From NCBI GenBank assembly GCA_046563655.1, contig CM102284.1, forward strand, positions 1,488,001 through 1,552,000: DNA of 64,000 nt. The letters run 5' to 3'. The notes under the pieces are model-generated. The model searched no databases. It saw only the letters and a program-made list of their open reading frames with translations, and was not told where the DNA came from. Origin of the DNA: Yuukianura sp. NJ FZ-2021. Its lineage: Eukaryota. Positions 1 to 63,564 of the stretch are shown piece by piece. Made by a program: the position numbers and the translations under genes. The first letter of the stretch is position 1; the number at the start of each line of letters is the position of its first letter.

Positions 1-1143
1 CCTTGTTCGTCCAGAATGTAAATCAGAACTCCTTTGGCCGGTTTTCCCACACTCGTCGTCACTGCCGTTCCTTTGGATATCCGGCAAACCGCCGCCAAAA
101 ACATCTCCGTTGAACCATATACATTGTACACCGTGAAATTAGCTTCGTCCATTCTGATTCGTTGTGGATTGAGTCGTGCACCGCCGACAAAAACCCAACG
201 AAGAGTCGTCATTTTGTCTACATCTTTTGCCATTAGGAGTTCGAGCAGAGGTGTCGGAAAAGCGGCGGCGGTAATACCACGTTCAGTAATCCATGACCGG
301 TATTGATCGATATCGAGCTTCACTTCTCGTGCCGGTATGACCAGTGTACCGCCTTTTGTGAAAACTGGCCAGATATCGCATAACGACACAATGAAACTTA
401 TGGAGACTCCCATGGCACTCCGCATATCGCTTGTGAATGTCTCCGGATCTGTTTCTACAAGCGTTTCGATTGCCGCGACAACAGAACTGTGCCGAACTAG
501 CACAGCCTTCGGGGTTCCTGTCGATCCAGAAGTAAACAAGCAGTAGGCGACGCCTTCCAGCGCTTCAGCGTCTTCTTCATAAATTTCTTCAACGTCTTTG
601 TTGGTTGCTGGAAAAACAAATGACGTTTAAAAAAATGGTAAGGTTAGGCTAACACTAAAAATTTTTTTGAAAATAATTTTTAAAAAATTTCACACGTTTT
701 GGTGACGATGGTATCCCAGCACAACTCATCCATTCCAGATTGTCTTGAGTGAAATGAAGATTTGGATAAGCATGTCCGAATTCAGTGTTCAGAGTGTCCC
801 ATTTGACTTGTGTCGTTACAACTGGCGGGAAATTGAGCATCTTTAAGCATTTCTGGACTTGGGCGCCAGGGTAGTTGTCATGGAGAACTACAACAATTTT
901 GTTGACATAGAGCGTTGCCAGGGATGACACTATGTATTTGATCCCTCCAGAAACGAGTGACACCACAAATGGATTCCGAGTGAATCCGAGTTCATATTTT
1001 TTTGCAAATGCTGTCACTTTGTCGTGCAATTCTGCGTAAGTCCAACTCCGATTGAATTCATCTTCCACAGCGATTTTAGACGGAAACGCTTGCACGGTTT
1101 GTTCAAAAATTTCCCAGATCGTAGATTCTTTAACAGTAGTCAT
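1..1143 (-). CDS. NRPS-like adenylation-domain protein, 5' part (runs off the left edge); exons 1143-696 and 607-<1
   Basis: Spliced translation shows A1 'WTYAEL', A3 'AYCLFTSGSTGTPKAV', A4-like 'SISFIVSLCDIW', 'VFVGGARL', A5 'YNVYGSTE' and 'SVGKP...IYILDE'. The GT..AG intron 695-608 (phase 1) preserves frame. Confidence 0.9.
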
Positions 1144-2051
1144 CCTGAAAGTGGTTAAAAATCGCTTGAAACTAGCTTTTAAAAACTGGAACTAAAAAAA
1201 AAATTTTTTTTTGTCGAAATTTAGAAAACCTAGCACACTTTCTTTGGATTGCATCGTACCGTTGCAAGGTTTTGTTGCACGTCAGAATGTAATTATGTAA
1301 TGGATTGGAACGGGTTTTATTCACAAAAAAAAATTTTTCAAACACTCAGAATGTTTCTGAAACTTCAAAAGCGGTCTTAAGCGATAACAAGGCTTTTTAC
1401 GACCTTTATACTCTTCTTATACAAAAGAAAGATAAAAATTGGAACCTAGCCTTACTAACGACAAAAGAATAAACATAATCTTTCTTAAACCAAACTGTTC
1501 AAACATCAAGAACTGAAAAAAATTGGACTTTGTTTGACACAGATACTCATTGTCATTACAAGAAATTTTATACAAGGCTATCTAAATTTAAAAAAAAAGT
1601 TTTTCTTTTTAAATTTCACAAAATAGAAAAACGAGATTTTTGATGTTCAACTTATTTGAATAATTTCAAAATATATCATTGTCATTTTTCCTCGTATTTT
1701 TTTTATAATTTTTTTCACAAATTGTTTAATTTAAGTTAGCTCACATAGTATGTCCAACTTGTGTGCCAAATCAAAAACTCCGTTTATATGTGCTGAGTAT
1801 TGCAAATATATAGCTGACGATGTTTCACAGAAATGTTATAGTTGGTATAACTGCTCTGTTATTATCGTGATGAAAAACGCGTGAACTTTTGACCTGAAAC
1901 TGCTAACCTAATCAGGGCAAAGTCAACACAAGCTTATAAAACTCCGTTTCAGTGACTTCCACAACTCTCAGTAGATATTCTCTAATGAGGTTCCAGAAAA
2001 ACCTGTTGTGAATTTCAATCAATTTTTGGAAGTTTAAATTTTGAAATAAAA

Positions 2052-3366
2052 ATGGAGATTTATGAGGTTGTTGTCATTGGAGCTGGAATCATGGGATCAA
2101 GTGCTGCTTACTACGCCTCAAAAAATTCTGGTTCCAAGGTTTTGCTACTAGAACAATTCGACCGGTTGCATCGTAGAGGTTCAAGTCACGGGGATAGCCG
2201 GTAAAAAAACACAAAATTAAAAAAAAATGAAAAATCAAACTTGTTTTTTTTTTCAGAATTATTCGCTATGCCTATCCTGAGGATTTCAATGCTTCTCTAA
2301 TGCCAGGCGCCTACAAAGCATGGGCTCAAATCGAGTTAGAATCAAACACAAAGGTGGGAGAGAATTTTTTGAAAAATAGTTTCTAAATATTTTTCTGAGC
2401 GGTCATCTTTTTCAAAATATTTGTTTTTTTTAGCTTTTTACAAAAACTGGGAGTTTGTCAATCGGAAAAAAAGATCACCCGGATATCCAATCAACTTTGA
2501 AAAATTTCCAAAAATTTAAAATTCCTTACGAAATTTTTACTCCTGCCACAATTGGATTTAAATTTCCCACGATTCGTCTTCCAGAAAGTCACGTCGCTCT
2601 GTATCAAAAAGATGGCGGGATGCTCAATGCCTCCAAAGCTGTTGCGACAATTCAATTACTTGCAGAGAAGAATGGCTGCAAATTTTTAGACAACGCACCA
2701 GTGCTAAAACTTGCGGTTCAAAAATTCCCGCACAAAAATGTTCCAGAACTCGTCAGAATTGAAACGCCTAGAGGGATTTTTTACTCTAAAAAATGCATCG
2801 TGACTGCAGGCGCTTGGACCCAAAAATTGCTCAAGGAAAATGTGAATGCCGACATTCCTTTACAGCCACAACAAACGACAATCGGATATTTTCGAGTCGA
2901 GGAACCAAACCGGTACTCCAGTTCGAACTTTCCGGTTTTTCTGGCATATTCTGAAGATGAGAAGGCTTTGTCGGTTTACGGACTCCCGGCATTGGAGTAT
3001 CCGAACATGCTCAAATGTGCTGGAGATACTGGAATACAGTGTGATCCAGACGGGAGGACATTTGAGCCTGATTTGAACGGAATTTTGAACTCCGCGGGAA
3101 CTTTTTTGAAACAATTTTTTATTGGTGTTGCTGAAACACCTACGCTGATGGAGAGTTGCATGTACACGCTGAGTCCAGATCGTAACTTTATTATTGACAT
3201 TTTACCGGGAAGTAACATTGTGGTTGGATGTGGATTTAGTGGACACGGATTCAAATTAGGTCCACTCATTGGCAACATTTTGACCCAACTTGCAACTACT
3301 GGAATTCATCCATATCTGCATGTAATTCCACATTTTTCGGTCAGTCGTTTCAAAAATAAGTTGTAA
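2052..3366 (+). CDS. PIPOX-like: Peroxisomal sarcosine oxidase / L-pipecolate oxidase-like FAD enzyme; exons 2052-2200, 2257-2353, 2434-3366
   Basis: N-terminal '[15 protein letters not shown]' FAD motif, '[14 protein letters not shown]', '[14 protein letters not shown]' (Cys at the covalent-FAD position) and '[11 protein letters not shown]'. Ends in -NKL (PTS1-like). Two GT-AG introns in frame. Confidence 0.92.
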
Positions 3367-3923
3367 AAACTAAATATTTAAAAGAAAAGAAACAGAAACA
3401 AAAAGTCACACTTAATCTGCATTGTTTAAATGTTAAAACATTTTGTTTATATTTTCCTCAAAATTTAAAATTTCGACAGCCCTGAATAAAAAGCATTTTT
3501 AATGCATTTTGACAAGCATACGGAAGTCTTTGGGAAATATTTCTGAAAAATGAATGCTCAGACTAAATGCTTTATCCATTAATTAGTAAAAATGGGGTTA
3601 TTCCGAGCTTCCACTTTTTCTAGGGTTTCGAATTTGAAATCTTGCTTGTGTTATACTCCAATTTTTCGCCTAAGTTTCTCGTTTTTTTTTTTGAAATTTA
3701 AATTAGTTCATTTCAGGTCTATATGAGCCACTCGTACAATTTAGTATTGTAAAATGAATATTCGCCAAGAACTTTTTGATTTCTAGGTACAAGTAAAAGC
3801 GACCGATTCACTTCAACCTGAACCATATCTTTGGGTGACGCGTTCAAAATCAAATCAACAACTGTATAGAGAAACAAATGAACGGTAGTATTGAAAATTT
3901 GTTGGAAAGCATTTATAGCCTGT

Positions 3924-6061
3924 TCAAAATCCCATTGATGGTCGCCGTGGTGATGGGAGGACAGATGGACTCTTCGGCCTTTCTTCGTACAGCTTGGCTA
4001 CAGCAAGAGACGAACGTCTGCCGGACTTTGGCTTTGCAGCGTCAGCAGCAACAGAAATGACGACGTCTGCTGCTCGTGCCTGACAATTTGAGTTCTGGAT
4101 TCGTTGTCCAATGGCACGCATGCGTCGTTTCAAAATTTCGTTGCCAAGGAGACAATCTACAGCCTGCAGTAGCTCAGCTTCAGTTAGGTGGTACGGTTCT
4201 AACCGCAGACCATGCCCTGTTTCCTGTACGCGTTGCGCATTGTCCGGCTGATCCGCAAAAAGCGGCAGCACAAGCAACGGTTTTCCAAAATAAAACGTTT
4301 CCGTCACAGTGTTGTTTCCGCCATGCGTAATGACGAGGTCTACTTTCGGCAGAATCAGGGTCTGCGGCAAGCTGTTGGCTCCCCACATGTTGCTGGGCAA
4401 CACCAACTCATCTCCAAGGGGTCCTAAATGTAATATATATTTATTAAATATATAAAAACAATAATTAAATTTGTGTACAATTTGTTGATGTGTAGCTATA
4501 CTAACCTTTAGACACAATAAAACGGTGTGGTGATTTGGCCAACATTCCAATGAGTTTCCGCATTAAGTTCAACTCCGAACAGCCTATTGAACCTAACGAA
4601 AAGTACACCAATTTCCCGGGAAGATTTGCCAGTTCAGCGGGAATTTCAAATTCAACATCTTCTTTCCGCACGAAAGAGTCAACACAATGCCATTTTGGTG
4701 GAAATGGACTGTGCATCGTGTATGACATTTCAGCTGGGTACATACAGATATTGGCGTATGGGGAATGCACTTGCCAGAGTGGAGAGTTCAATTCCAATTT
4801 TGGCCCGCCTTTTTCTAACACCCAACTTCGGAATTCTTCAAACGTGTCTTTGTACACTTCTTTTCATTTTGTCGTTATGCTCTTTCCACAGAGTTTTGTC
4901 TGCTTCGAAAATCGGACAACCGGACCATGCTGGCGGTAAGTCATCACTGACCAATCCACACAGCGGATTGAGTGACGTACAAAAAATCCAGGGTACGTCT
5001 GAAAATATAATGAGATTCATAATAATATAATTATGTTAATAATATTCATAAAATATAATACTTATGTACAGTTTCTGCTAGCTAAAACAGTACACCCTAT
5101 TTTGCTTCCATTGAAACGAGTTAGAACATTATGTACACATGGGGGGAAAGTTAATTCAAAATTTGAAACGTTAGCGAACGTTTATGATGGAATGTTTACA
5201 AATCGCGTTATTCACTCGTTTTCTCTCTACAGTTGCCAAGTTAGGCAGATAACCTAACCTAAAATACACATTGAACATTATGTTTTTCAACCATTTGAGC
5301 TCTTGAACCAATTCAAATATGAACTAATGGCGTGCTTCCAAGTGAACTGATACTCTGTCCAAATATGAAATAATAAATTTACTATTTATAATTACAACAA
5401 TCATTAATTTTTACAAATCCAGTACTGTTGTGTAATTAATTTCTTAAACCAAATGAATTAATGAAATAATAAAATAAAGAAAATGTTCTTAGGTTGCCCC
5501 AGTAGGGTTGCAACAGTTCCGCCCTAAGATGCGCCGAACTCTAAAGTCGGTGGGAGGGAGGGGTGCGATTATCCCGGGGCAATGTGAGAATCGTTTGTTA
5601 AATTATACCACGAGTATATAAAAGTGTATCAATTTCATACTTTTGTTGTCCATTAGTGCAGGGAGTTGCATAACATTGTCAATCACGACAACATCTGGCA
5701 TCACATCTTGCATAATACAGAGCATGTTGTCATGGGAGTCCATTGCCTTTCGCACAAGTTCTTTATAGAGCGCCGTGTGGAAAAACTCCATCATTTGCAA
5801 AGGGGGCATCGCAAGAGCAGGGGCCATCGCAGCGACAATGTCGCCCCACTTCTCGCTCGGTTCTTCATCAACCTCATCTTGGTAGTACTCCTCTTCGAAT
5901 CCCAGCGGCTCCAATTTCCCTCTCCATGTATTTGGCGTAGCAAAAACTACGCGGTGACCACGCTTAAGCAGTTGTTGACCAATCCCAATGCACGCGGAGA
6001 AGTGACCTACAGCCTCCACTGGGGCCATCAAAACAGTGTAACTGGGAGTTACTTCGGTCAT
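3924..6061 (-). pseudogene. UDP-glycosyltransferase copy 1 (bacterial MGT/YjiC-like GT1) with a +1 frameshift; exons 6061-5641, 4998-4506, 4423-3924
   Basis: Same exon structure as copies 2 and 3, but exon 2 is 493 nt versus 492 nt. An extra base at ~4861-4864 gives ATGAAAAGAAGTG versus ATGAAAGAAGTG in copy 3. This could be a homopolymer sequencing error rather than true pseudogenisation. Confidence 0.7.
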
Positions 6062-6786
6062 TTTTGAAATACTCTTTAAAAAAAAAACGAAAATTTCAAC
6101 AAAGAATTGATATTTAAAAAAAAACTAAACGTTGACCTTTAGAGCATCACTTCCACAGAAGTGAAACTCCTAAAAATGGTTAGCGCGCTAAAATTTGAAC
6201 TGATATTGAAACTGGTACTGCTCTTGAATTCCAAGCAATCTTACCAATTTATAACTTACGATTACAAATTCCTACTTTTGTACAACTTTTTGTATTTTTG
6301 TCCAGGAAGTTTTTAGTCAGCAGTGAAAATCAAGCCAAACCGGTTTAAGTAATTAATTTAGTACTTTTATCTTGCAGCATCAAGTTGTTTCTAATAGAAA
6401 AAATGGCAAGAGTCCTACAATTTTTGTAAACAATTGCACCAAAAAGTAGCAATTTTTACCAAAGTCTATGGCTATCATGGGATGGCTGGACAACTCCTCT
6501 TAAAAGTAGAACCAGGCAGACAGACATGGTAATTTCTCAAAGTGTTAGTGTTTTTAAATTCCCAAACATGTTATGCAAAAAATTTTTTTTGCAAACCACG
6601 ACTTGTTACCTATAACAAACGTCTTCAAGGACGGCGTGGCATGATCAAGTCCAATTCCACGTTGTATTTCGTTTCGAAATTTTTCAGACAGACAGACAGA
6701 CAAGGTCAAACCAATAAGTAACTTACGTTGCTTAATAATTGATTTTTGAATTTTTGACACATTTTGGAAAAGTTTCTATACGATCT

Positions 6787-8520
6787 TCAAAATCCCATTG
6801 ATGGTCGCCGTGGCGACGGGAGGAGAGATGGACTCCTCGGCCTTTCTTCGTACAGCTTGGCTACAGCAACAGACGAACGCCTGCCGGACTTTGGTTTTGC
6901 TGCTTCATCAGCTACAGAAATGACTACGTCTGCTGCGCGTGCCTGACAATCTGAGTTCTGAATTCGATGTCCAATAGCACGCATGCGTCGTTTCAAAATT
7001 TCGTTGCCAAGGAGACTGTCTACAGTCTGTAGCAGCTCGGCTTCAGTTACTTCGTACGGTTGTAACCGCACACCGTGCCCGGTTTCTTGTACGCGTGTCG
7101 CGTTGTCCATCTGATCGGCAAAAAGCGGCAGAACGAGCAACGGTTTTCCAAAATAAAATGATTCTGTCACAGTGTTGTTTCCGCCGTGCGTAATGACGAG
7201 ATCAACCTTCGGCAAAATCAGGGTCTGCGGCAAGCTGTTGGCTCCCCACATGTTGCTGGGCAACACCAGCTGATCTCCCAGCGGTCCTAAATATAATATA
7301 AATGTATTAAATACATAAAAATAATAATTAAATTTGTGTACAATATGTTGATGTGTAGCTATACTAACCTTTAGACACAATAAAACGGTGTGGTGCTTTG
7401 GCCAACATTCCAATGAGTCTCCGCATTAAGTTCACCTCCGAACAGCCTATTGACCCTAACGAGAAGTACACCAATTTGCCGGGAAGATTTGCCAGTTCAG
7501 CGGGAATTTCAAATTCAACATCTTCTTTCCGCACGAAAGCGTCAAAACAATGCCATTTTGGTGGAAATGGACTGTGCATGGTGTATGACATTTCTGTCGG
7601 GTACATACAGATATTGGCGTATGGGGAATGCACTTGCCAGAGTTGAGAGTTCAATTCCAATTTTGGCCCGCCTTTTTCTAATACCCAACTTCGGAATTCT
7701 TCAAACGTGTCTTTGAACACTTCCTTCATTTTTGCGTGGTGTTCCTTCCACACAGCTTTGTCTGGGTCGAAAACCGAGTAACCGGCAAATGCTGGCGGTA
7801 AGTCGTCACTGACCATTCCGCAGAGAGGATTGAGTGACGTACAAAAAATCCATGGCACTTCTGAAAGTGTAATAATATATATAATAATATTCATAATATT
7901 CATAAAATATAATATATATCAACTATATATAAACCAACTGTCGGCTATACATGCAATGATACTCCGTCAAAATTTTAAATAAAACACGGTTCCCACGCTG
8001 CCAACGTAGAGGTCCAACAGGAACGTCCTGGGGCAGTGTGAGAACCGTATTTTGAATATTATAACAAAGAATTATTATAAAAGCATAGCAATTTCATACT
8101 TTTGTTGTCCATTAGCGCAGGGAGTTGCATAACATTGTCAACCACGACAACATCCGGCATCACATCTTGCATTATACAGAGCATGTTATCATGTGAGTCC
8201 TTTGTCTTCCGCACAAGTTCAACATAGAACGCCGTGTGCAAAAACTCCATCTTTTGCATAGGGGGCATCGCAAGGGCGGGAGCCATCGCAGCGACAATGT
8301 CGCCCCACTTCTCGCTCGGTTCTTCATCAACCTCATCTTGGTAGTACTCCTCTTCGAATCCCAGCGGCTCCAATTTCCCTCTCCATGTATTCGGCGTTGC
8401 AAATACTACGCGGTGACCGCGCTTGAGCAGTTGCTGACCAATCCCAATGCAAGCGGAGAAGTGACCTACAGCCTCCACTGGGGCCATCAAAACAGTGTAA
8501 CTGGGAGTTACTTCGATCAT
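6787..8520 (-). CDS. UDP-glycosyltransferase copy 2 (GT1, cytosolic type); exons 8520-8100, 7860-7369, 7286-6787, ~470 aa
   Basis: N-terminal 'AVGHF' catalytic His region, 'LVYFSLGSIG' and UGT signature 'LPQTLILPKVDLVITHGGNNTVTESFYFGKPLLVLPLFADQ'. No signal peptide or C-terminal TM helix. Exon lengths 421+492+500 are in frame. Confidence 0.93.
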
Positions 8521-9356
8521 TTTTTTTCAAACACTTTTAAAAAAAACGAAAATTTCAATTGACATTAAAAAAAAACTTTGAACTTCAGAGCTTTAGTTCC
8601 GCGGAATAAGTAAAACTCGTAAAATTGGTTAGCACGCTATTTGAACTGATATTAAAACTGGCACTGCTCTTGAATTCGAAACATTCTCAACAATTTATAA
8701 CTTACGAATTCCTGCCTTTGTATAAATCAAAGTCCAGGAAATCTTTACTTATTTCACCAGTGAACCAAGAATTAAAGAAAATCAAGCCAAACCGGTTTAC
8801 TTAATTTATTAAACTTTTATCTTTTAGCATCAAGTTATTCCTTACAGAAAAAAAAAAGCAAGCGTGCTTTAATTTTGGTAAACAAATACACCCAAAAGTA
8901 GCCATTTTTACAAAAGTCTATGGGCAAAATAGGATGACTGTACAACTCCTCTTAAAAGTTGAACCAGACAGACCGACATGTTAATTTCTCAAAGTGTTTT
9001 TGCATTCTCAAACATGTTTTGAAAAATAACTTTTTGCAGACATTGATTCTTAACTAACAAAAGTTTTCAAGGACGGCGTGGCATGAAGAACTCCAATATT
9101 CCATGTGGAATTTCGTTTCCTTTACTATAATTAAACTTTCATGATTTCGTGATTTCTGAGTATTTTTTTCAAATTCGAGGAAAAACAACTAAACCTTGAA
9201 CATGAATTGTCGAGTGACACGAGTATAAAGCCAAACATGATTTTTACGGAAAGTTGAAACTGGATTATCAACAAAAAATTTACAATTCCCATATCCTTTC
9301 AAAAATAAGTGAATTTTGAATTTTTGACACATTTTTGAAAAGTTTCTATAAGATCT

Positions 9357-11438
9357 TCAAAATCCCATTGATGGTCGCCGTGGCGACGGGAGGAGAGATG
9401 GACTCCTCGGCCTTTCTTCGTACAGCTTGGCTACAGCAACAGACGAGCGTCTGCTGGAATTTGGTTTTGCTGAGTTCGCAGCTACAGAAATGACGACTTC
9501 TGCTGCTCGTGCCTGGCAATCAGAGTTCTGGATTCGATGTCCAATGGCACGCATGCGTCGTTTCAAAATTTCGTTGTCAAGGAGACTATCCACAGCCTGT
9601 AGTAGCTCAGCTTCAGTTAGGTGGTACGGTTCTAACCATAGACCGTGCCCGGTTTCTTGTACGCGTGTTGCATTGTCCAGCTGATCGCCAAATATCGGCA
9701 GAACGAGCAACGGTTTTCCAAAATAAAACGTTTCCGTCACAGTGTTGTTTCCGCCATGCGTAATGACGAGGTCTACTTTCGGCAGAATCAGTGTCTGCGG
9801 CAAGCTGTTGGCTCCCCACATGTTGCTGGGCAACACCAACTCATCTCCCAGGGGTCCTAAATGTTATATATATGAATTAAATATATAAAAATAATAATTA
9901 AATTTGTGTACAATATGTTGATGCGTAGCTATACTAACCTTTAGACACAATAAATCGGTGCGGCGATTTGGCCAACATTCCAATCAGTTTCCGCATTAAG
10001 TTCAACTCCGAACAGCCTATTGAACCTAACGAAAAGTACACCAATTTGCCGGGAAGATTTGCAAGTTCGGCGGGAATTTCAAATTCTCCGTCTTCTTTAC
10101 GCACAAAACAATCAAAACAATGCCATTTTGGTGGAAATGGAGAATGCATCGTGTATGACATTTCCTTTGGGTACATACAAATATTGGCGTACGGGGAATG
10201 CACTTGCCAAACTTGAGAGTTCAATTCGAATGTTGGCCCGCCTTTTTCTAACACCCAACTTCGGAATTGTTCAAACGTGTCTTTGTACACTTCTTTCATT
10301 TTGTCGGTATGCTCTTTCCACAGAGTTTTGTCTCCGTCAAAAATCGGATAACCGGTAAATGCTGGCGGTAAGTCGTCACTGAGTATTACACAGAGAGGAT
10401 TGATTGAAGTACATAAAATCCAGGGTACTTCTGAAAATATAGTAATATTCATAATGAAATAATAACATTAATAATATCTACTACATATTACAGCATCTCT
10501 AACACAGTCCTCCTGTCCTCTGTGTGTGAGTGAAATGAGAGTTAACTCCTGGCTCTCTTATTCACTTTGTGTGAACAGGAGCAAAACATAAACAGTTTAA
10601 CTCTCACTCAAGCACACGAGGAAAAGAAGCTACAGAAGACATTGTAAAATACAAACTAAAAACCTCATTCTTTTCTCCACTCCCTCTCATGGGTCCTCAC
10701 ACAAAACTTAAAGGAGGCCTCGTATGTCATAGTAGTGTTCTTCTTATCCACTCTCCTCATTTACTCTCCCAATAGCGAAGCGAATCTACCCTCCGCTGCG
10801 CGCATGACAATTTTACAAACAACGGTTGAAATAAACTAAATATTGGATAATTGCACCCAACATTTGTTTTTGGCCCGTCTTTTTGTAAATTTAACTATTG
10901 TGTAATCGTTTTTTGTGCGATTAGTCAGTCAAACTGGTACGTACGCAACAGTCTAGAATCTTTCGGTGGCCGTAGGCCACCGAAGATTCTAGTTCCTACA
11001 TATAATCAATTTCATACTTGTGTTGTCCATTAGCGCAGGGAGTTGCACAGCATTGTCAATCACGACAACATCCGGCATCACATCTCGCATAATGCACAGC
11101 ATGTTGTCATGTGAGTCCATTGCTTTCTGTATAGCTTCTTTATAGAGTGCCGTGTTGAAAAACTCCATCTTTTGCATAGGAGGCATCGCAAGAGCAGGAG
11201 CCATCGCAGCGACAATGTCGCCCCATTTCTCGCTCGGTTCTTCATCAACCTCATCTTGGTAGTACTCCTCTTCGAATCCCAGCGGCTCCAATTTCCCTCT
11301 CCATGTATTAGGCGTAGCAAAAACGACGCGGTGACCACGCTTAAGCAGTTGCTGACCAATCCCAATGCACGCGGAGAAGTGACCTACAGCCTCCACTGGG
11401 GCCATCAAAACAGTGTAACTGGGAGTTACTTCGATCAT
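9357..11438 (-). CDS. UDP-glycosyltransferase copy 3; exons 11438-11018, 10430-9939, 9856-9357
   Basis: Near-identical paralogue of copy 2 with intact frame and canonical splice sites. Confidence 0.93.
10477..10992 (+). mobile_element. Non-autonomous Helitron-like element in intron 1 of UGT copy 3
   Basis: 5' end A|TCTACTACATATTA; 3' GC-rich hairpin CGGTGGCC-GTA-GGCCACCG followed by CTAG|T; insertion between A and T with no TSD. Not seen in the homologous introns of copies 1 and 2. Removing it leaves a ~71-nt intron. Confidence 0.75.
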
Positions 11439-12306: not shown

Positions 12307-15300
12307 TTACGCTAAAATCGTTTCTGAAAATATACGTTGAAGAATTTGTGGCAGTTTGGTTGTGTCTAAGCAAACGTAGGCTTTGCCTGGTGGCAACCGT
12401 GACTTCAACCTGAAAATCAAAATTCCAAAATTTCAGAATTTTTGCTTTCTGAAAAATTTCTGTTTTCATATTTTATACAAATGCATATTGAGTATTACTT
12501 CTCTGCTTGGTCACCCAAAGATCCAATGAAAATTGCAAATGCCTTGACATCTTCATTTGAATTCAAAATTTTGCTCAACTCCCGCGGTGGAATTCCGTAC
12601 CGCTCCAAATTTGCATCCGACAGCATAATGACAAAAGATTCATCGAAATCGTCCACCTCTTTGGCCAAAGTTTTTATCGCTTCATCTGTGGCTTCCAGCG
12701 TGTTGTCACCGGAAGAGCAGAACTGACTGTGTAAATGCATTACGCGCATGACATCCAGTCGCTCCTTATTGTCTTTCGGTTCCTTCCCGCGCTCAACAAC
12801 CGGCAACTTGAAATCGTCACCGGAGTGTCCCACAATGTCATACTGAAACATTTCTTCAAATCCAGAAAAACCCTCCATCACCATCAGAGCACATTGGAGC
12901 ATTCGGTCCAGTCGACGGTCATATCCATTGAAACTGGTTTTAAAAAAGCGCCAAATATAGATTTCTTTGATTTTGAAGAAGTTGCCAAACCTGAAATGCA
13001 AAATTCCATTACCGATACATGGAGCCTGACACATCGACGATGAGCATAAGACGTTTTGGTTTTTGCTGAGGATCTCCAGGTTCTGGAACTTCTTCTTGCC
13101 TCAGGCGATAAATGTTCTTTTCCCCAACGACGCCTGCAAAACAGTAGTTTTTTCGAAATCATTTCGAATTTTCAAGTTTTCAAAAATATTTGAATGTATT
13201 TTAGGAAAACCTTCAATGATTTTTGTGTCGTCCAATTCGCCTGACGTTTGATGTCTCACCCACTTCCGCTCTTTGGCCTTAGCCTGAAGGGAACTCAAAA
13301 TCACTCGTAAAGCACCAATCTAGCATCAATAAAAAATTAATAAAAAAAAATCTTTTCTGAACTTTTTTTTTTGAAAAAAAAAAATTGCCTGTGGCCTAAT
13401 TGGTCCCAAATAATCTTCGTAGACATTTCCTTCATATTTGCTCATCTTGATTTCATGCAGTTTCTCTTCAAAAGCCTTCTGAGCCATAGCCCGTGCCATT
13501 TTTCGGGCTTCTGGTGACAAAGCTTGTTTCACAGCATCTGAAACCTTGCGAATTTTCAAAAAAAACTTTCAAAATTTGTTAAAAAAATGTCAAAATTTTT
13601 AGTAATTTTAGTTTAACCTGGAAGACAGGATTGCCAGAATCCAGTCTGTAGGGACCACCGACTCCACCTAGCCCCGCCGTATCTCTCCCACCGGAGCCAC
13701 CAGCCCATGTGTTGCCACCAACATGAGGAGCTCCAGTGGCGTCAACTTGGCCGTGCTTAGGGCCCTTGAAGTCCGATTCCTGGAAAGTCTTGTCACTCAT
13801 TCGAAGCGGGTCCAAGTGACCTTGACTTTTCAATTCCGGAAGCTCCGAAACCGAAACACGGCGAACTTCCAACTCACTGTAACAAGAAATTCTAGTTCAT
13901 TTTAACAATAATTACAACATTGTTAATTAAAACTATCAATTTTTTTGTTTTTGTTGTTAAGTAATTAATGCATTCTTACCCTTCATCAGTGTATCTTCTC
14001 CTTAACATGATTCCTTCAGAAGGTTCTAGTTTGTATTTCTTGAGGGCTTTTCGAACAGTTTTTCTGAGTTCGTTGTTGTACACGTCGAAATCAAAAACGT
14101 TATCGATTGCTTCAGCGAGAGTATCACTGGGATACATTTGTAAGTGCTTCACAATGTTCACAGCTTCTCTGGTTGAGTAAGGATAAGAAATCGTTCCCTC
14201 GTCGGCAAGTGCCCGAAGATCTCCGAATGCCTTTGCAATTCTTTCCAGAAAATCAACAGGAATGTTGGGTCCATACTCCTTCAGCAGAGCCATCTCTGAG
14301 TCGAAACTCGGATTATCAATTGCATGAACACTGAATAAATCACCTGAAACACAAGTTGGTTAGGTTAGAAAATGGTAGTTGACGTGGATGGTTGGACGTA
14401 ACTTTAGTAAAATTTTTGAAATTACCCAAAACTGAGAAAAAATCGTTTCCTAGAAAAGGAAATCCGGGACGATTGGCTAAAACGAACATTCGAAATTCTG
14501 GATGGAGTGGAATAATTTTTTCTAATTTTTCTGGCTCTAGATGTTTGTAGTGCGTATCAAACAAGGCCATTGGTACAATTCTACGGTTGTCTGACAAAAT
14601 CATTTCACCACGCTCCGCGAGTGTCTGTATAAAAAAAAAACGTTACACAGTTTTTAAATTTAAAAAAAAAACTGAAAAAGTTTTTAGCATTTTCACACTC
14701 TTGAAGCTAACTTACTTTAAGAATTGATGTGACATGAGTAGGGGCCTTATCAACTTCGTCGATGATGATTACATGACCTTCACGAGCCGCTCGAACTAAT
14801 GGAGAATCTTCAAAGGAAACAATTCCATCTACAACTTTCTGTTGCAGCGTCAGCGCTTGAACTGTCGTGTCTCTGAATTCATAAAAGTCAAAATTAACCA
14901 GTGGCTAAAGAATTCAAACCGATTAAAATCATGTTGTAACCAACCTATGAAGTTGTATGTACTCCCTCGGACGGTTGAGAAGGAACAACAGCTGATCAAC
15001 CAATCTTAAATCGCAAACAAAAACTGTAGTTACTAAAACTGATTATATAGGCTACCACCTACCAATTGCCCGACCACTTACCACTTTCCCGACCACTTAT
15101 CACTTTCCTACCACCTATCAATTCCATACCATCTATCACGTTCCGACCACCTACTACAACTTACGCTGCCACAACACTACCACCAGTAGCCCCGCGCTGG
15201 CACTTTTTTCATGTAATTAGATATTTGCAATGATAATGAATGATTAAATTCATACTTGTTTTTCCCAACTCCTTGATTCCCAACCAGCAAAAGATGTTGA

Positions 15301-18300
15301 CCAAGGATGTAATCACGTAACAGTTCTTCTAAGGCAGCTACATGTTGTTGGATATTGTAGAACAGGAGCTGTGGAACTTTCGACTTGAACTGCGTGTCAG
15401 GCCAAACTTCGGTTCTAGTGTTGCCAATTTTAAGAATTTTCCCGTCGTTCTCAAACTCCACACTTAACATAGGCTGGGAATCGCTGCTGCTCAACGTTGG
15501 TAGGATTCCATTGTCCTTCATACACCTCTCTAGCTCTTCTTTGTTCAATTGCGGTAGAAATCTAAAAATACAAAAGGAAAACTTCAGAATCCAAAATCAG
15601 CTGAATTTGTTAAATTTTACCTTGCCAGACATGCGCGTGAAACTTCTTCAAAGGGTCCATGAGTCAAGTCGATCGAACTGAATTTCTCAGAACGTTGTGC
15701 AATTCGAATTAGTTGGCGGGTTGACATGGAGGATGCCAAAGACTTCTTAGATGATTCGTGCGACTGACGAAGTGCTCGAGCCGTTTGCAGGATTCGTTCC
15801 ATGTGACCGGTTGCTCCTCCTTTAGAACACTGAAAATCAGAATTTATACTGAGTTTTTAAAACATTTGTAAAAAGTATTTTCAGTTTGTATTTACAAAAG
15901 CCTCGATCACATCCAGTTCTTCTTCCATGGACATTTCAGGTAGCTGGTGGTAGAAGAATAAACTGAGCATTTCGGGAGTTAGCCACTGCTTCTGCGTTTT
16001 GTTACTCCCGCCAATCTGCGGCGGATTTGCACTCGCGACTATGTAAAAATTGGGGTGAATGCAGTACAATCCTTTCTCGTTGTTCATTTGATCGTCGGTG
16101 TAACCGTATTGGGATTTGAGCGTGTTGTAGCGATCAAGTCGTAGAAGACGAGTTCCATCATGAAGTTGCAGTTCACGATCCTGTACTAACCTAAACATGC
16201 AAAACAAAAGTTAAAAGATTTTTCAGAAAAAAAAAATGATTTGAAGCGGGAAAAACTTAAAATTTTGAAAAGTCTTACCGATGGATGACAGCGAGCGTGC
16301 TTGGATGTAATTGATCAATTCCGTCTAAAACTGCCATTTTCCCCTCCAGAGCAGCTTGGATCAGCGGAGAATTGATCCAGATTGTATCTCCCTCTTGATT
16401 GGTTGATCTCTGTTGCAGCAAATCCCGGGCCGTCATGTCCTAAACAATTCAAAAGTTACACACGACACACATTTCATCAACAGCAAAAACTTCAAGACTT
16501 CAATTTTACAAAAATATAATTACCTTGTACAGAACAATCGGTTCAATTTTAGCACCAACTAAATCAGCGAATCTTGAAATGAGCACACTTTTGCCAGAAC
16601 CACGATTTCCGATAAGACAGATATCACGTCCCACGCGGTGGGATTCCAGCATTTCACTTAGCACCACTTCTTGTGAAGGAATTGAAACGTATTTGAGGTA
16701 TCCTTGTTCCTTTTCCGGTTGCGGTAATTTCCTTTTCAGTTTCTTGATTCGCTCAATTTTGAATCCAGACTTTTCCAGAATCTGTTCAACGGCACTCACT
16801 TCAGCTCCAATCTTACTTTCAGCGTGAACGTGGGCTTGAGCGTCTTTGGACTTTTCTAAAAGGAGTTCATAAGGATAAAGGCGTAGTAGTAGGCGGTAGA
16901 GCGATGCCTTAGGATCTTTGTTCTAAAAAAAAGTTTCAACAAAAAGTTTTTCTAACATGTTTACACAGCTTCAAATTTGTTTACAACTGACCAATAAACG
17001 AGCAGCATCGTACAGATTTTCAAGTGGAAAATGTGGAAGTGATATTGCCCATGGATTGTTTTCGGAATCTCGAAAATCGGGATCATTGGACCAGACGACG
17101 GAATAAGCAAAGTTTGTGAGCGTAACGAGTTTGTCGACTGGCGCCTCTGGATTGAGTGATCTCAGTCTTAAAAGCATTTCCTAAAATTCAAAACACTTTC
17201 TTCATAATGTCAAGAACTAAAGAAAAGTGGAATCTTACTTCATTTGTGAGCGGTATGATGCTTCTTCCTTGAAACCTTGAGCGAAGGGGTGGATCCAGTG
17301 GATTGCCTTTAAAAAATGGAACTGGAAGGCCAAGAGCTATCACACGGAAATCTTCATGAACGCGTACCAATTTCCATTTGTCCAGTGTCTCCGCACCGTG
17401 CTCCTACCGAAAATATTAAAAATTGGACACGGCATAGGAGTAAATGCATTTCGGTTGCTATTACTTTGAGTACTAATTGAGTTGAATCGGAGATTCACCT
17501 TCAGCAATTTATCGTATCTCTCTGCTCCAATCAGGTGACGTCCATCTTCGAGATGCATTTCTCTGTTTTCAAGTAAATTGTTAAGCAACGGCAGAACATT
17601 TCGCTCAGCTTTTTCAATTCCTTCTATTACCAGGAGCCGCCCTTCCGTCGCTGCTCTGACTGCACTCTAAAATTGAAAATAAGTTGAATCAGCTGATTGC
17701 TTTCAATGCATTAATGGAATTGCGAAATAAATGTTAAATTCACATTGTGAATACCTGATCAAAGTATTGAGCCGTTTTCCCGATAACTTCCCGTCGCTGT
17801 TTCAAATCTGCTTCAGTGGTGTCTCTTGACAGAGCAACAAACTCAACCTCCCTACTGGTTAATTCAGCAAAGGCAAACGCCAAGTGCCTCCTTGTCGAAC
17901 CAGGGGGTCCGACCAAAAACACATCTTGTCGAAGCAGATCCTTCTTGAGTATCCATTGCAGATGGGCCAATTCCGTTTGCGTAAAGCCGGAATCATCTTG
18001 AAAGGAGACGCAGCAATAATAATTGATTATATTCTGTAGGATCAACAATCAATAGTTATACAACTTGTACTCGGTGGGAGAACGTACAGTAAAGCACTGG
18101 TATTAGATGCGGACTCTTCGGCTCGTTGACAATTTTATAAGCGGATCCAATCGAAACACGTTGAGGATAAACACCGTTCTTGATCACTCCATCGTTACCT
18201 CCTGAAAATAATAGGTATGAAAATTCAAAATTTTAAAGGTTTCTTTAGTTTAGTCTATGTAAAAGCCTACCGATTGATATAAATCGTTTTAAAAAAGGCA

Positions 18301-18469: not shown

Positions 18470-19529
18470 CACCAATGACGAAAAGCAGTAATTAAAACGC
18501 AGCTAATTAACTCGTTAAGGAAAACGTTTAACCAAGTCTAGATATCAAAGCGAAATGGATTCTTAAAAAATATACGCTGTTAGTAAAACGACCTGCCATG
18601 TGTTTTTGACATTTGTTTACATTTTCTGGGCCACACTAATTCCCGGAAACCACTCATTTAAGAAAATGCGTTGACGGTAGGATTAACGACTGTCTTTGTA
18701 GCCTTGTGGTGCTTTCACACTATGAAGCAACTCGCAGCTTTCTGCTTGAATTAAATATATATAAATTAAAACTATCATATATAAAAATATATTTATATAA
18801 CGTAATGAATATTTGTACATTCTCAATATCCTATATAATAATACGTATTTTCCAAAGTTGTGAACCTAACCCTTACTAGAAACCTTACGGTACTGGAGGA
18901 GGGGTGAACTTTCCATACTCCAATCAAAGTTTGTTGCTTAAATCGGGTCCTCAGTGTATTAGATTATGCATTTTTCTTAATTTGGTAACCACCTTATTGT
19001 TACCGTTGCCCTAATAATAATTACCTGATTTCGAACAGACTTGACGTACGAGTTAGCGAAGATTAGAAAGCCCATTTGCCTTTTTCCCATTTTTTTGAAA
19101 ATTGGTCAGACATGAAATAGGCGGTCGGACAATAAAGTTTCTTTTCAAATTTTCTAAATGAACCAGTCTAGAACCAGTTTTAGAACCCTGTTATTTTTTG
19201 ATGATAATGTGTCCAACCACCCATCACCTCAAATCATGAATAATAAATTCTGCTTGTGTAGGGATTGATCGATATCCGAAAACGGAGTGTGACAATGCGG
19301 GACATTCTTTTATTATACGGTACTTATAGTTCTATTTTTGGTTTTCCATTCCATTTTTCCTAGGAGAAGGAAAACGCAGCAGAAAGTAATAAATTTCTGA
19401 TCGAAAGCAATTGTAAAGTGTTGGCCCATTTTTAAAACTGAAAAGACTAAAAATGTTGACCAGATTTGAAAATGTTGACATATTTTGAAACTTCGACCTA
19501 GTAATAAAATGTTGACAATCGTGTTGCAG

Positions 19530-20041
19530 GGGAGTTATGCACTGGCGCTGGGTCAAGGGTATACACTCCCTGCCGAACATGATGGACCTCCCAGCGTTTA
19601 AAGTGAAACTAATGAAGATCGTAATGCCAAGGAAGATCAAGAATGTCCTTCGTATTCAAGGGCTTGGAAGGCTCCCTTACGACAAAATGGTGGACATGAT
19701 GGAAGCAGACTTAAGAAATTTGTCAACAGTACTAGGTGACAAAAGTTACTACTTGGGAGAAGAACCTACGGAAATCGACTGCACGCTGTTTGGATTTCTA
19801 GCACAAGTTCTCTGGTCAATGCCTGGAAGCCCTTATGAAAATCTAGTCAGAAGTAATTTTACTAATAATCACACACGGTTTTCAATCTTTTATTACCTTG
19901 ACATATTTACATATTAAAATTTTTTATTCGTATTCGTAAATTTTAGATGAACTGACGAATCTTCAACACTACTGTGAGCGAATACGGAACAAATTTTGGC
20001 CAGACTTTGAGAAACTTTTACACAAGGCGCATACCGACTAA
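19530..20041 (+). CDS. Failed-axon-connections (FAX)/metaxin-type GST C-terminal domain; last two exons only (19530-19852, 19947-20041)
   Basis: 'QGLGRL...ADLRNLSTVLGDKSYYLGEEPTEIDCTLFGFLAQVLW' and 'NLQHYCERIRNKFWPD'. Begins at a splice acceptor (TTGCAG|G). No N-terminal thioredoxin-fold exons were found nearby. Confidence 0.8.
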
Positions 20042-26354: not shown

Positions 26355-27813
26355 TACGCCTGTGTATTAATGTATTAATTTAGAAAAGTTTTTTTTAACT
26401 TCCAAGTAAAGTTTTACTGATTCAGACAATTATAACTGAAATTTTCGACGAGAAAGAATTGATCAAAAGCTTCAGCTTACAACGGCAGCATTCTTAATTT
26501 TTTATAAATAATATTCTGTTGCTATCAAACATATTTATCGCGTGCAAAGACAAAAACCTTTTCCAATTTCTAAATTGCTAATGTGTTATGTGACTAAAAA
26601 TGTTCACGGGAGGCATTTTTTCTTTAAAATTATATAAACATTAGGTAATTGTTTTTTTTAAAGTTCCATAGATGTTAGTTTATTTCTAAAAGTGAATATG
26701 GTGTAGAGCGCGTTAGTATTATAAATAGAATTGTGAAGAAATTTTACTCGGAAATATGGCAATTTTTTTTGCAAATTCCTAAGCTGTCATTTTTTCCCAG
26801 TGTTCTGTAAACTATTGCATAAACGAAACCTTACGTTGAAGTGGTTTGCATAAGAACTCCAATGGGTTTGAGATGTCACTGTCAATCCAGTCTAACCTTG
26901 ACGGTAACCAATGTACCAAAAGAAAGTCTATCAGTTGTAGGTTTGAGAGCAAAAAATATTTTAATCGTGCCTTTTGTTAGTCATCGAAACTCCATAACTG
27001 TAAAAGCAAAGTGAAGATGTCCTCAAGTACTCACAGTACGTTTATGTCACTTATCAAAAAAGAAAATTTAAAATACAATTTGATTATTATATAATAATTC
27101 CAACTTTGCACAAAACTTTTACCATCGGAGTACCACAATGAACCAAGCTCGAAGTTCCCGCTGTTTAATTTAAAATGGAAAACAGAATGAATCTTAAGGT
27201 TTTCTTTTAAATAAATTTTTGTTTAAAACTAACATTTATGTAACAAAAAATATATTCATTTTTGAAGTACTGTGCCGTTGGAAAGTTTGTTTTGTGGCGT
27301 CGCGAATTATTTGTAAGTAATGCTGTGTCAAATTGAATTTCTGCTCAAAACGATTCAAATTTTTCGAAATTATATTTTGATAAAATTTACTATATACATG
27401 CTGATTGCTGATGTAATTTGAGTATATTCTCATTCCAAATGTTGTGAACCATGTGCGACCTTCAAACACAATTACGAGGAGGGTTTGTGGGTCTAAAAGT
27501 TATCTCTATGCATACTATATCTTCCAGTCTCAAGTATGTGAAACACGCAAACGAAACAGTTGATTACACAGTGGAACTCAAAACGAAAATTTATCTATCA
27601 AAAATACATATTTAAAGCTATTCAGAATTAAAAAAGAATACAGTCCGTATTTACAAAAAAAATTGCAAAAATAGTTCCAGTTTTAAGTAAACTTACAGTT
27701 ACGTGCCAGTTGGCTTTCAAATTGCGAGTCTTTTTCCACTATATACTAAAAACAATTACAGGACAAATTCGTTTTTTTTTTCAAAATTCGAAAAAAATTT
27801 TACTAGGAACAAC

Positions 27814-59574: not shown

Positions 59575-59914
59575 CTGAAGAAAAGTCCATGTCCTGCCAA
59601 AAGGAAAAACTTAATTGAAAGAAATTATGTCATTCCAGTGAATTGGGTGCGGTGTTTCATGAAAAAAATTATGTACAATTTATTGTAATTTATTTCAATT
59701 TTTGAAAAAATTTTCAGCATGTTCACTCGAAAAGATTTTGTTGTATTTTGCTAGTCATAATACAAAAACGTTCCTGGTTAGTCATGTTGAAATAATTTGG
59801 GAACAAGTACTAATAAAAGCATAATTCGCAATTTTTGATACAACTTTACTACCATTTTTCCAAAAAAAAAAAAAAAAAGTTTTTGTCGAAAAAAAAGCCG
59901 TATAAATTAAGTAG

Positions 59915-63165: not shown

Positions 63166-63564
63166 CAAGTAAACAGCCAAATATTCCGACCTGGGCTCGA
63201 ACCCGAGTCCCTATTCCAGAGGAAAGAGCCAAAAAAATTTTTGTAAATAATTTAAATATTTTTTATGTCAAATCTTCAACAGATAACTTCCAGATTGTGT
63301 GACATAACATGCTAAACATATTTTATGTTGAAGAATCCGACAATTTTTTTTTCATTTTTCTGGAGTGTGGCTATACCGACACCCGAAACTACTGTAGAAA
63401 TTTTTTTTTGAATATACAGAATAAGATTTCTTTTTTAAATTGGAAAACTTGACGACAGGCTGAGCATATTCCCTCGTGAGTCACATAAGTCCAATTAGAT
63501 CAATTGAATATGATTTGACTCATGTAAGAATTTGGTTGATTTAGTTGATTATGTAGACATTGAA

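Follow-up and report, generated by a model that had tools for sequence, protein, structure and literature searches.

An NRPS-like adenylation gene, a PIPOX-type oxidase gene and a glycosyltransferase array as probably independent neighbours in the genome of Yuukianura sp.

We have analysed a stretch of 64,000 nucleotides of Yuukianura sp. DNA, here called the window. Positions 1-11438 contain five genes with introns: the 5' part of a gene with an adenylation (A) domain, a PIPOX gene and three tandem GT1 glycosyltransferase genes. On balance we consider that these are genuine, long-resident arthropod genes of springtail-like character, that their adjacency is probably coincidental, and that they presumably act independently. 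A sequence-only reading of the same DNA had regarded them as a candidate biosynthetic cluster. Its five gene locations are all confirmed by open reading frames, Pfam hits and GT-AG splice sites, and its gene identities agree with the Pfam and NCBIfam matches, the homologues and the trees.

RESULTS

Organization of the locus

The gene models are summarized in Table 1. All the introns of the five genes are GT-AG. The oxidase gene does adjoin the three glycosyltransferase genes, as described previously, but the orientation required correction, as the PIPOX gene and glycosyltransferase copy 1 lie tail to tail. The region between the divergent start codons of the adenylation and PIPOX genes is AT-rich and contains only low-complexity repeats. 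The other intergenic gaps at the locus are 557, 725 and 836 bp. Since all the gaps fall between 0.5 and 1 kb, there is nothing unusual in the head-to-head spacing of 908 bp in a window as dense in genes as this one. The upstream regions have no motif in common beyond low-complexity sequence.

Table 1. Features of the locus, numbered from the first nucleotide of the window
Feature	Position	Strand	Description
Adenylation gene exon 2	1..607	-	leaves window at position 1; motifs A3-A5; Pfam AMP-binding
Adenylation gene intron	695-608	-	GT-AG
Adenylation gene exon 1	696..1143	-	ATG at 1143; motifs A1-A2; Pfam AMP-binding
Divergent intergenic region	1144..2051		908 bp, ATG to ATG
PIPOX / monomeric sarcosine oxidase-type gene	2052..3366	+	exons 2052-2200, 2257-2353, 2434-3366; GT-AG; DAO domain
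GT1 glycosyltransferase copy 1	3924..6061	-	exons 5641-6061, 4506-4998, 3924-4423; frameshifted
GT1 glycosyltransferase copy 2	6787..8520	-	exons 8100-8520, 7369-7860, 6787-7286; intact 470-codon frame
GT1 glycosyltransferase copy 3	9357..11438	-	exons 11018-11438, 9939-10430, 9357-9856; intact 470-codon frame

The GC3 of the five genes is 0.42-0.51, compared with 0.36-0.53 in neighbouring genes. Arthropod ionotropic-receptor-like genes are present elsewhere in the window, and the five genes and the flanking arthropod genes lie on one contiguous sequence free of N. No IPNS or cephamycin genes were found among the scanned open reading frames of the window.

The adenylation gene encodes an NRPS-type A domain

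Inside the window the adenylation gene has about 353 codons, spanning motifs A1-A5. Pfam AMP-binding matches exon 2 with 120.7 bits and exon 1 with 41 bits (cut-off 29.9). In exon 2 motif A3 is FTSGSTGTPKAV, A4 is SFIVS, with Ile for the usual Asp, and A5 is NVYGSTE. An NRPS-type A domain (PF00501 / TIGR01733) has A3 of the form TSGSTGxPK and A5 of the form YGxTE, and is matched best by NRPSs rather than acyl-CoA ligases; this is what we observe. The top NCBIfam match is TIGR01733 with 123.5 bits, where the cut-off of 317 applies to the whole domain and only about half of it is inside the window. The best solved-structure matches are NRPS A domains, with LgrA, McyB, ApnA and GrsA heading the list, and the Atlas clusters ranked first comprise A-T-R proteins from bacteria or fungi. 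No relative of the gene turned up when JGI metagenome contigs and prokaryote genomes were scanned by pattern. A canonical NRPS would contain a condensation domain and one or more complete C-A-T modules. The protein begins directly at the A domain, and there is no condensation domain upstream.

The closest relative found is P0475, a protein of 805 aa. It is the sole single-stretch match among 150 listed, and the other 149 are matched in 3-8 stretches. Other relatives may exist, because that list is crowded by multi-module NRPSs. P0475 has an identity of 55% in that list and is colinear with both window exons from its N-terminus (exon 2 is 54% identical to residues 163-359, and exon 1 is 40% identical to residues 22-155). 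It contains AMP-binding, AMP-binding_C, PP-binding (18.5 bits, below the Pfam cut-off of 20.8) and NAD_binding_4 (111.7 bits) domains, and matches the TIGR01746 thioester reductase with 117.2 bits, the R domain being truncated. There is no C domain in its 805 aa. P0475 also has a sub-threshold match to the Lys2 model TIGR03443 (197.6 bits, cut-off 1030). An A-T-R carboxylic acid reductase has a carrier domain with the GGxS serine, followed by a thioester reductase (NAD_binding_4 / TIGR01746). Given the 54% identity and the colinearity with P0475, we infer T and R domains for the window gene from this one relative; it is therefore probably an NRPS-like A-T-R carboxylic acid reductase. The earlier designation as an NRPS gene was correct for the A domain, but the gene is better described as NRPS-like, probably A-T-R.

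Ebony and AASDH are likewise animal proteins in which a carrier domain comes after an N-terminal NRPS-type A domain. Beyond the carrier domain lie an amine-selecting domain in Ebony and PQQ-like repeats in AASDH, whereas P0475 has NAD_binding_4 / thioester reductase in that place. Orthology with Ebony or AASDH, which the sequence-only reading had put forward as one case against its own proposal, is thus ruled out, and the gene is not of this housekeeping kind. No named animal protein is present among the best 120 matches of the gene, but as the same search missed P0475 too this absence is weak evidence.

The substrate pocket

In a canonical amino-acid-activating module an Asp at Stachelhaus position 235 binds the alpha-amino group of the substrate. 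In the window protein this position is occupied by Ile79, and the same Ile is found in P0475, where FI is opposite the FD motif of LgrA in the alignment. At the position aligned to Ile79, 111 of 120 NRPS matches have Asp, and the others Thr (4), Val (3), Ile (1) or a gap (1). In this residue the gene does not conform to a canonical amino-acid-activating NRPS module. With the alpha-amino-binding Asp replaced in this way, the enzyme probably acts on a substrate other than an amino acid.

By GrsA numbering the pocket residues would be I, V, C, A, F, G, V, L and A, all of them uncharged and only one aromatic. The ATRR glycine betaine reductase is distinguished by three aromatic residues and an acidic residue in the pocket, and by a second reductase domain. 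The window pocket, with positions mapped by GrsA numbering, would have one Phe and no acidic residue. In ATRR the A-domain pocket comprises a three-aromatic cage plus Glu, and A domains that lack the Asp mostly activate non-amino-acid substrates, according to the account of ATRR in bioRxiv 10.1101/559534.

The N-terminal NRPS-type A domain, and the A, T and thioester-reductase domains of the closest relative, are features in common with the NRPS-like carboxylic acid reductases (fungal Lys2, HqlA, CARs, ATRR and the terminal A-T-R modules of MxcG and AusA). The missing alpha-amino-binding Asp is a feature of ATRR and of aryl- and keto-acid activating domains (bioRxiv 10.1101/559534). The gene differs from the A-T-R reductases in its arthropod host, in the window covering only part of the A domain, with any T and R domains beyond it, and in an identity of no more than 36% to any named member among the best 120 matches. 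Fungal and nematode ATRR has the architecture A-T-R1-R2, and its aromatic cage contrasts with the aliphatic pocket indicated by the GrsA mapping. There is an animal precedent for an NRPS-like A-T-R enzyme in plant-parasitic nematodes (PMC11050029). None of the papers that our literature searches listed mentions 'NRPS-like' or 'thioester reductase' for a springtail or mite. Springtail NRPSs other than ACVS are listed in the supplements of PMC10531068.

The oxidase

The PIPOX coding sequence of 1179 nt encodes 392 aa that match the DAO domain and end in -NKL, a terminus that resembles a peroxisomal PTS1. The best family is TIGR01377 soxA_mon, with 249.7 bits on exon 3. The named best homologues are all animal, from Orchesella (45% identity), Bradysia (44-46%) and vertebrates (∼31-35%). 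In the tree the oxidase lies in a clade of 25 rows that includes springtails and is split from bacteria at 99. Its position there is the earliest branch of a springtail plus sciarid-fly clade, apart from the PIPOX of other animals. The protein thus has the DAO fold of ∼390 aa, the soxA_mon family as its best match and the place in a eukaryote clade that characterize a PIPOX / monomeric sarcosine oxidase. It shares these features with peroxisomal PIPOX, and its length is within the 382-393 aa of named peroxisomal sarcosine oxidases; it is unlike them in its low identity to the vertebrate enzymes and in its separate clade. Because it groups with springtail sequences, the oxidase looks to be a native eukaryote-type PIPOX. 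The homologues and tree therefore do not bear out its earlier interpretation as a cluster-specific enzyme. In Folsomia, PMC5200902 regards PIPOX as an enzyme native to metazoans.

The glycosyltransferase array

Each glycosyltransferase gene has three exons and 470 codons. The three copies share 90-92% identity in coding sequence, and their 82-nt intron 2 hardly differs. Copies 2 and 3 differ by 56 non-synonymous and 68 synonymous codons out of 471, and differences between the copies cluster at residues 94-107 and 146-214. In copy 1 an insertion of 1 nt near 4864 shifts the frame, leading to a stop at codon 193. Either the copy is a pseudogene of recent origin or the assembly is in error at a homopolymer. 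The previous identification of three GT1 genes is upheld, with the amendment that only copies 2 and 3 retain an intact frame.

Pfam UDPGT matches with 58.7-61 bits (cut-off 19.5). The top NCBIfam match is TIGR01426, the MGT family, with 81.6 bits for exon 3 and 26.3 bits for exon 1, these being single exons and the cut-off of 260 being for the whole protein. The array has the C-terminal UDP-sugar-binding signature, N-terminal catalytic His and GT-B two-domain length of MGT-family GT1 enzymes (TIGR01426; PF00201 signature). The sequences read ...THGGNNTVTE...DQ... and, at the N-terminus, GH, which we read as the signature and the catalytic His respectively. The best 19-residue Kyte-Doolittle window is 1.46, compared with 2.62 for a membrane protein from the same window of DNA, and no C-terminal hydrophobic stretch is found by this method. 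By this measure the enzymes are soluble, in line with their earlier description as cytosolic.

The glycosyltransferase tree has 101 rows, with homologues limited to lengths of 380-500 aa. The window copies are on a side with 33 rows (18 from mites and 4 from rotifers), split at 100 from 68 rows that we read as bacterial MGTs (3 from named bacteria, 23 carrying the JGI annotation MGT family and 42 unnamed). They form their own branch with two metagenome sequences, with a support of 99. The description as bacterial-type holds good, given the TIGR01426 match and the adjoining bacterial MGTs in the tree. None of the best 120 matches is an insect ER-type UGT. One match is labelled as insect, a partial Rhagoletis protein of 349 aa named YojK-like.

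The best solved-structure matches are UDP-glycosyltransferases 202A2 and 203A2 (109.6 and 92.9 bits), which belong to Tetranychus urticae (PMC10731231). Bacteria-derived UGTs of invertebrates are soluble and group with the UGTs of mites, rotifers and Folsomia, not inside bacteria or the ER-anchored insect UGTs; the window copies behave in this manner. The UGTs of mites and rotifers, with those of Folsomia, were grouped together in PMC9113151. On sequence criteria the glycosyltransferases are members of this soluble UGT family of bacterial origin, known already from acariform mites, bdelloid rotifers and Folsomia. Like the mite enzymes they have no signal peptide or membrane anchor (PMC10731231) and are in tandem, as are 42% of mite UGTs (PMC9113151), but they differ from the described members in having a branch of their own with the two metagenome sequences. 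Folsomia candida has 46-48 UGTs (PMC10087712), and this large and often tandem family has been tied to detoxification in the literature. By analogy with the mite enzymes, the window copies probably have a detoxification role.

DISCUSSION

On the reading that we favour, with the five genes as independent neighbours, the A-T-R enzyme would adenylate a carboxylic acid outside the alpha-amino acids, transfer it to a carrier domain of its own and, through reduction by NAD(P)H, set it free as an aldehyde or alcohol. Of the features of such a stand-alone enzyme, the window shows the A domain, with Ile in place of Asp, and we infer T and R by homology. The oxidase would be the native flavin-dependent sarcosine/L-pipecolate oxidase of the lineage. 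The glycosyltransferases would be a recently duplicated array that probably attaches sugars to small, lipophilic acceptor molecules, in the manner of phase II detoxification, with one copy broken or mis-assembled. Some observations weigh against independence. Cluster finders search for an NRPS-like core enzyme placed, as here, no more than two genes from glycosyltransferases of bacterial origin. The aldehydes or alcohols from an A-T-R enzyme are plausible UGT acceptors, and the A-T-R architecture comes from a single relative with a truncated R domain. Moreover, 36 antiSMASH clusters are given for Folsomia candida (PMC5490193), and springtails have a real beta-lactam cluster. That cluster (ACVS-IPNS-cmcI/J) is animal-encoded and built around an NRPS (PMC5490193, PMC10531068), whereas the window gene starts at the A domain and by homology would be one module ending in a reductase, not a three-module ACVS.

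A biosynthetic gene cluster is marked by linkage conserved in relatives, co-expression and a common product. In a true animal cluster the reductase would form an aldehyde or alcohol from a hydrophobic acid, one or more of the UGTs would glycosylate this or a downstream product, the oxidase would supply or tailor an amine, and all would be co-regulated. This we consider unlikely, although a core-type enzyme, an oxidase and three glycosyltransferases do lie within 11.4 kb, the adenylation gene is not of the Ebony/AASDH type, the glycosyltransferases descend from the MGT family that includes the natural-product enzymes OleI/OleD and CalG, and there is the springtail precedent (PMC5490193, PMC10531068). 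Against these stand the native type of the PIPOX, the size and commonly tandem arrangement of the UGT family, the three orientations with ordinary spacing, and upstream regions with nothing but low-complexity sequence in common. Furthermore, the glycosyltransferase copies are very recent duplicates, one frameshifted and with their differences bunched in two segments, and so are closer in appearance to a detoxification array that is diversifying than to an enzyme dedicated to tailoring. A cluster of a kind undescribed in animals, in which an aliphatic-pocket reductase would provide an aldehyde or alcohol, the UGTs would convert it to a storable or secreted glycoside, and the divergent oxidase would be co-regulated with the reductase, is distinctly unlikely.

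Linkage might alternatively be confined to the divergent A-T-R and PIPOX genes, sharing a bidirectional promoter and one amino-acid-derived pathway (e.g. pipecolate / aminoadipate semialdehyde or N-methyl amino acids), with the UGTs as unrelated neighbours. Lys2-type A-T-R enzymes and PIPOX both give aminoadipate semialdehyde / piperideine-6-carboxylate, and this common product would fit such a pathway, as would the head-to-head placement with 908 bp between the ATGs and the sub-threshold match of P0475 to the Lys2 model. ATRR, the A-T-R-R enzyme of fungi and nematodes, has glycine betaine as its substrate, which belongs to the same pathway as sarcosine (bioRxiv 10.1101/559534, PMC11050029). 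Yet the gap is ordinary for this locus, and the pocket, all uncharged and with one aromatic residue on the GrsA mapping, has neither the cage and Glu of ATRR (bioRxiv 10.1101/559534) nor a charged residue to hold aminoadipate. We regard such a pairing as quite improbable. Microbial contamination or a chimeric assembly could have placed microbial-type genes beside animal ones, and outside invertebrates the best matches of the A domain and glycosyltransferases are indeed bacterial or fungal. The spliceosomal introns in all five genes, a GC3 in keeping with that of the neighbours, the flanking arthropod genes on the same N-free sequence, and the grouping of the glycosyltransferases with other invertebrates and not inside bacteria make this extremely improbable.

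If the genes do act together, soil arthropods would possess, in addition to the beta-lactam genes, a second kind of biosynthetic cluster encoded in an animal genome. Such a cluster would join two separate gene families of foreign type to a native enzyme, and would be a good example of how pathways are put together once genes have been transferred. In the absence of clustering, a hexapod A-T-R-type gene whose pocket shuts out amino acids would still take the animal NRPS-like reductases beyond nematode ATRR, and the adenylation gene offers a definite candidate on which expression and substrate screens could be run. The glycosyltransferase array brings one more lineage into the soluble UGT family of bacterial origin that is common to mites, rotifers and springtails.

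Five spliced genes at the start of the window

The first 11.4 kb of the window contain five genes with spliceosomal introns, having GT-AG at every splice site. The coordinates of these and of the other features of the window are collected in the table. The sequence-only reading had listed the same five genes; they are real, and were correctly recognised. The adenylation (A) gene is of the NRPS type, and both of its exons match AMP-binding (Pfam; cut-off 29.9 bits), exon 1 with 41 bits and exon 2 with 120.7. Searches for RNA families and tandem repeats gave nothing relevant.

Features of the window, with positions counted from its first base
Feature	Position	Strand	Comment
A gene	ATG 1143; exon 1143-696; 88-nt intron; 607 to base 1 and beyond	-	open frame
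Oxidase gene	2052-2200, 2257-2353, 2434-3366	+	DAO-family, 392 aa, C-terminus -NKL
GT1	3924-6061	-	three exons; tail to tail with oxidase
GT2	6787-8520	-	three exons; intact, 470 codons
GT3	9357-11438	-	three exons; intact, 470 codons
Multi-exon gene, two AAA_5 (dynein-related AAA) hits	12498-18048	-	directly flanks GT3
GST_C_6 exon	19516-19914	+	
Two tandem ORFs, 781 and 751 aa	20382-22724, 24114-26366	-	apparently intronless; 77% identical
Single 532-aa ORF, PALP (PLP-dependent) domain	27691-29286	+	
Cys/Met-metabolism PLP enzyme exon	39695-40066	-	
Glucosamine-6-P isomerase / 6-phosphogluconolactonase exon	45901-46575	+	
EamA transporter exon	52664-53083	+	
At least three tandem FAD_binding_4 + ALO (D-arabinono-1,4-lactone / L-gulonolactone oxidase) genes	54764-64000	+	
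GULLO2-like fragment	63724-63999	-	opposite strand, window end

Identity of the adenylation gene

The solved structures that best match the A gene are the NRPS A domains LgrA, McyB, ApnA and GrsA, and among NCBIfam models the amino acid adenylation domain ranks first. Among proteins of 365-2000 aa, the best 120 matches of a word-indexed search were bacterial and fungal NRPSs only, with 24-43% local identity, and at most 36% for those spanning most of the query. Giant multi-module synthetases made up most of the output of an exhaustive HMMER search, in which one of the 150 matches listed was a single stretch. This is P0475, an 805 aa protein from a public assembly with 55% identity to the A gene in that search. 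It is colinear with the window protein from the first residues, and the two are 40% identical in exon 1 and 54% in exon 2. Its domain order is AMP-binding, AMP-binding_C, PP-binding and NAD_binding_4 / thioester reductase, the sequence ending within the reductase domain, and the Atlas clusters nearest to it are A-T-R (adenylation-carrier-thioester reductase) proteins of bacteria and fungi. [quoted passage not shown] Patterns taken from the alignment of the window exon with P0475 matched 178 stretches among JGI metagenome contigs and 39 among prokaryote genomes, with no confirmed relative in either set.

The sequence-only reading had named orthology of the A gene to a housekeeping animal enzyme such as Ebony or AASDH as grounds for refuting its cluster proposal. 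The A gene is no such orthologue, the closest relative found being the A-T-R protein P0475. Ebony and AASDH were also absent from the best 120 word-indexed matches, but that search overlooked P0475 despite its in-range length, so its silence on them is weak evidence.

Substrate class of the adenylation gene

Amino acid substrates are bound through their alpha-amino group by the Asp of the A4 motif. The motif in the window is SFIVS, where an Asp aligns to the Ile in 111 of the 120 NRPS hits; P0475 shares the Ile. The portion of bioRxiv 10.1101/559534 that deals with A domains without that Asp has them mostly activating aryl, keto or hydroxy acids. The substrate of the A gene is thus probably not an amino acid. 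By GrsA numbering, the residues lining the pocket are presumably I, V, C, A, F, G, V, L and A. On that mapping the pocket is uncharged and largely aliphatic, which argues against aminoadipate as the substrate. PIPOX feeds aminoadipate, and for that reason we considered ACVS, the springtail beta-lactam NRPS. The A-domain start, the uncharged pocket and a closest relative with one module and a terminal reductase rule against it. The link to sarcosine also raised the betaine reductase ATRR (A-T-R1-R2). Its aromatic cage seems to be absent from the A gene on the same mapping, and we keep it as a rival of low odds. ATRR uses three aromatic residues plus a Glu (bioRxiv 10.1101/559534, in part), and comparison with the A-gene pocket argues against glycine betaine. 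The original description as an NRPS is best narrowed to NRPS-like, probably A-T-R with a non-amino-acid substrate.

The oxidase

Among the best 120 matches to exon 3 of the PIPOX-type oxidase, the closest named relatives are from springtails (Orchesella cincta 45%, O. dallaii 44% and Allacma 44%) and sciarid flies (Bradysia 44-46%). Vertebrates and molluscs follow at 28-35%, and bacterial N-methyltryptophan oxidases lie lower. A tree of 54 rows was rooted on six bacterial sequences, with 25 named and 28 unnamed sequences chosen from the 120 matches. The window protein forms a pair with one of the unnamed sequences (support 99), that pair is basal in a 25-row clade of springtails and flies (support 95), and all the eukaryotes split from the bacteria at 99. 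In Folsomia, PIPOX is described as an enzyme of the pipecolate pathway native to metazoans (PMC5200902, in part). Judged by its relatives, the oxidase is a native-type gene.

Within the springtail clade the Bradysia PIPOX sequences (P0128 and P0137) group with 13 unnamed rows, with support 100. The pipecolate pathway appears absent in insects in the sections of PMC5200902 that treat it, and terpene synthases are reported to have moved into Sciaridae by intraphylum transfer (PMC11665903). The Bradysia PIPOX may be a second such case.

The glycosyltransferases

The coding sequences of the three tandem glycosyltransferase genes are 90-92% identical, and intron 2 is near-identical. In GT1 one additional A near 4864 puts the sequence out of frame, with both halves otherwise open; the copy is either a pseudogene of very recent origin or the product of a homopolymer mistake in the assembly. 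The hydropathy maximum of these proteins is 1.46, compared with 2.62 for a receptor-like protein in the window, and they have no hydrophobic stretch of membrane strength. Exon 3 matches UDPGT, EryCIII-like_C and Glyco_tran_28_C, with MGT as the top NCBIfam family. Its closest relatives among the best 120 matches come from oribatid mites (Oppia, Medioppia, Oppiella), Panonychus, dust mites and bdelloid rotifers, together with bacterial MGT-family enzymes. Identity over exon 3 is about 50-60% for most of them and ranges from 45 to 67%. The best-matching solved structures are UDP-glycosyltransferases 203A2 and 202A2, which belong to Tetranychus urticae (PMC10731231, in part).

A tree was made from 101 rows, comprising all the exon 3 matches of 380-500 aa and the two intact window proteins, with fused and fragmentary sequences left out. 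Two unnamed metagenome sequences join the window copies (support 99). On one side of a split with support 100 the window copies stand beside 18 mite and 4 rotifer proteins (33 rows in total), and on the other are 68 rows that we read as bacterial MGTs (3 named bacteria, 23 called MGT by JGI and 42 unnamed). The top family and this placement agree with the bacterial type originally proposed. In the parts of the literature consulted, mite UGTs cluster with those of rotifers, Folsomia and bacteria and not with other arthropods' UGTs, tandem arrays hold 73 of the 172 astigmatid UGTs (both PMC9113151), F. candida strains carry 46-48 UGTs each (PMC10087712), and the mite enzymes are promiscuous and tied to detoxification (PMC10731231). 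Neither the oxidase nor the glycosyltransferases are of a family new to springtails.

GT2 and GT3 are identical over residues 1-93, and their 56 differences are bunched at 94-107 and 146-214. Going by description, these regions would correspond roughly to the acceptor-side loops of the mite structure paper, and they give only a hint of acceptor diversification.

The remainder of the window

The metabolic genes of the remaining 52 kb include an EamA transporter, one enzyme each of the Cys/Met PLP, PALP and lactonase/isomerase types, and at least three tandem gulonolactone-oxidase-like genes. The FAD_binding_4/ALO genes form another tandem oxidase array. For the PALP ORF the sole solved matches are D-cysteine desulfhydrases (32 bits), and long N- and C-terminal parts extend beyond the domain. 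The AAA_5 gene, which looks like VWA8, marks the right-hand limit of any candidate cluster. At 1e-5 the 781- and 751-aa ORFs matched no Pfam family. Both contain strongly hydrophobic segments, and their nearest Atlas clusters are arthropod hypothetical proteins (0.96-0.97), with ionotropic receptor clusters also near (0.90-0.93; Lig_chan in 14-58% of members). We take the two ORFs as probable divergent ionotropic receptors.

Cluster or independent neighbours

The sequence-only reading proposed that these genes may form an animal biosynthetic cluster. A core-type enzyme does lie no more than two genes away from transferases related to bacterial enzymes that tailor natural products, aldehydes or alcohols released by A-T-R enzymes are plausible acceptors for them, and there is precedent for clusters in springtails. 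Yet the oxidase is native, and the transferases belong to a large family that is prone to tandem arrays and linked to xenobiotic conjugation, their array here being very young with one copy broken. The five genes take three orientations. The other 52 kb are equally rich in metabolic genes, and with the whole window so dense in them any single adjacency weighs less. We regard a true cluster as a hypothesis of modest probability, and unlikely.

The divergent spacer of 908 bp between the A gene and the start of the oxidase is not shorter than the other gaps (557, 725 and 836 bp). No shared upstream motif was found on comparing it with the three glycosyltransferase upstream regions, which yielded A/T-rich low-complexity repeats only. 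A functional link confined to the divergent A gene/oxidase pair is improbable in our estimate. Contamination is excluded by the introns, by a GC3 within the range of the neighbours and by the presence of arthropod receptor-like genes in the same uninterrupted sequence, and we give such an artefact hardly any weight. On balance we favor the five genes being independent neighbors, while a small share of the probability falls to none of these readings.

NRPS-like enzymes of A-T-R1-R2 organization are already known in plant-parasitic nematodes (PMC11050029, in part), and non-ACVS NRPSs are mentioned for Folsomia candida and Holacanthella duospinosa (PMC10531068, in part). For springtails and mites, neither 'NRPS-like' nor 'thioester reductase' occurred in any of the papers listed by our literature searches. 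The reductase-type gene itself is the most useful product of the finding, as a target for expression and substrate screening.
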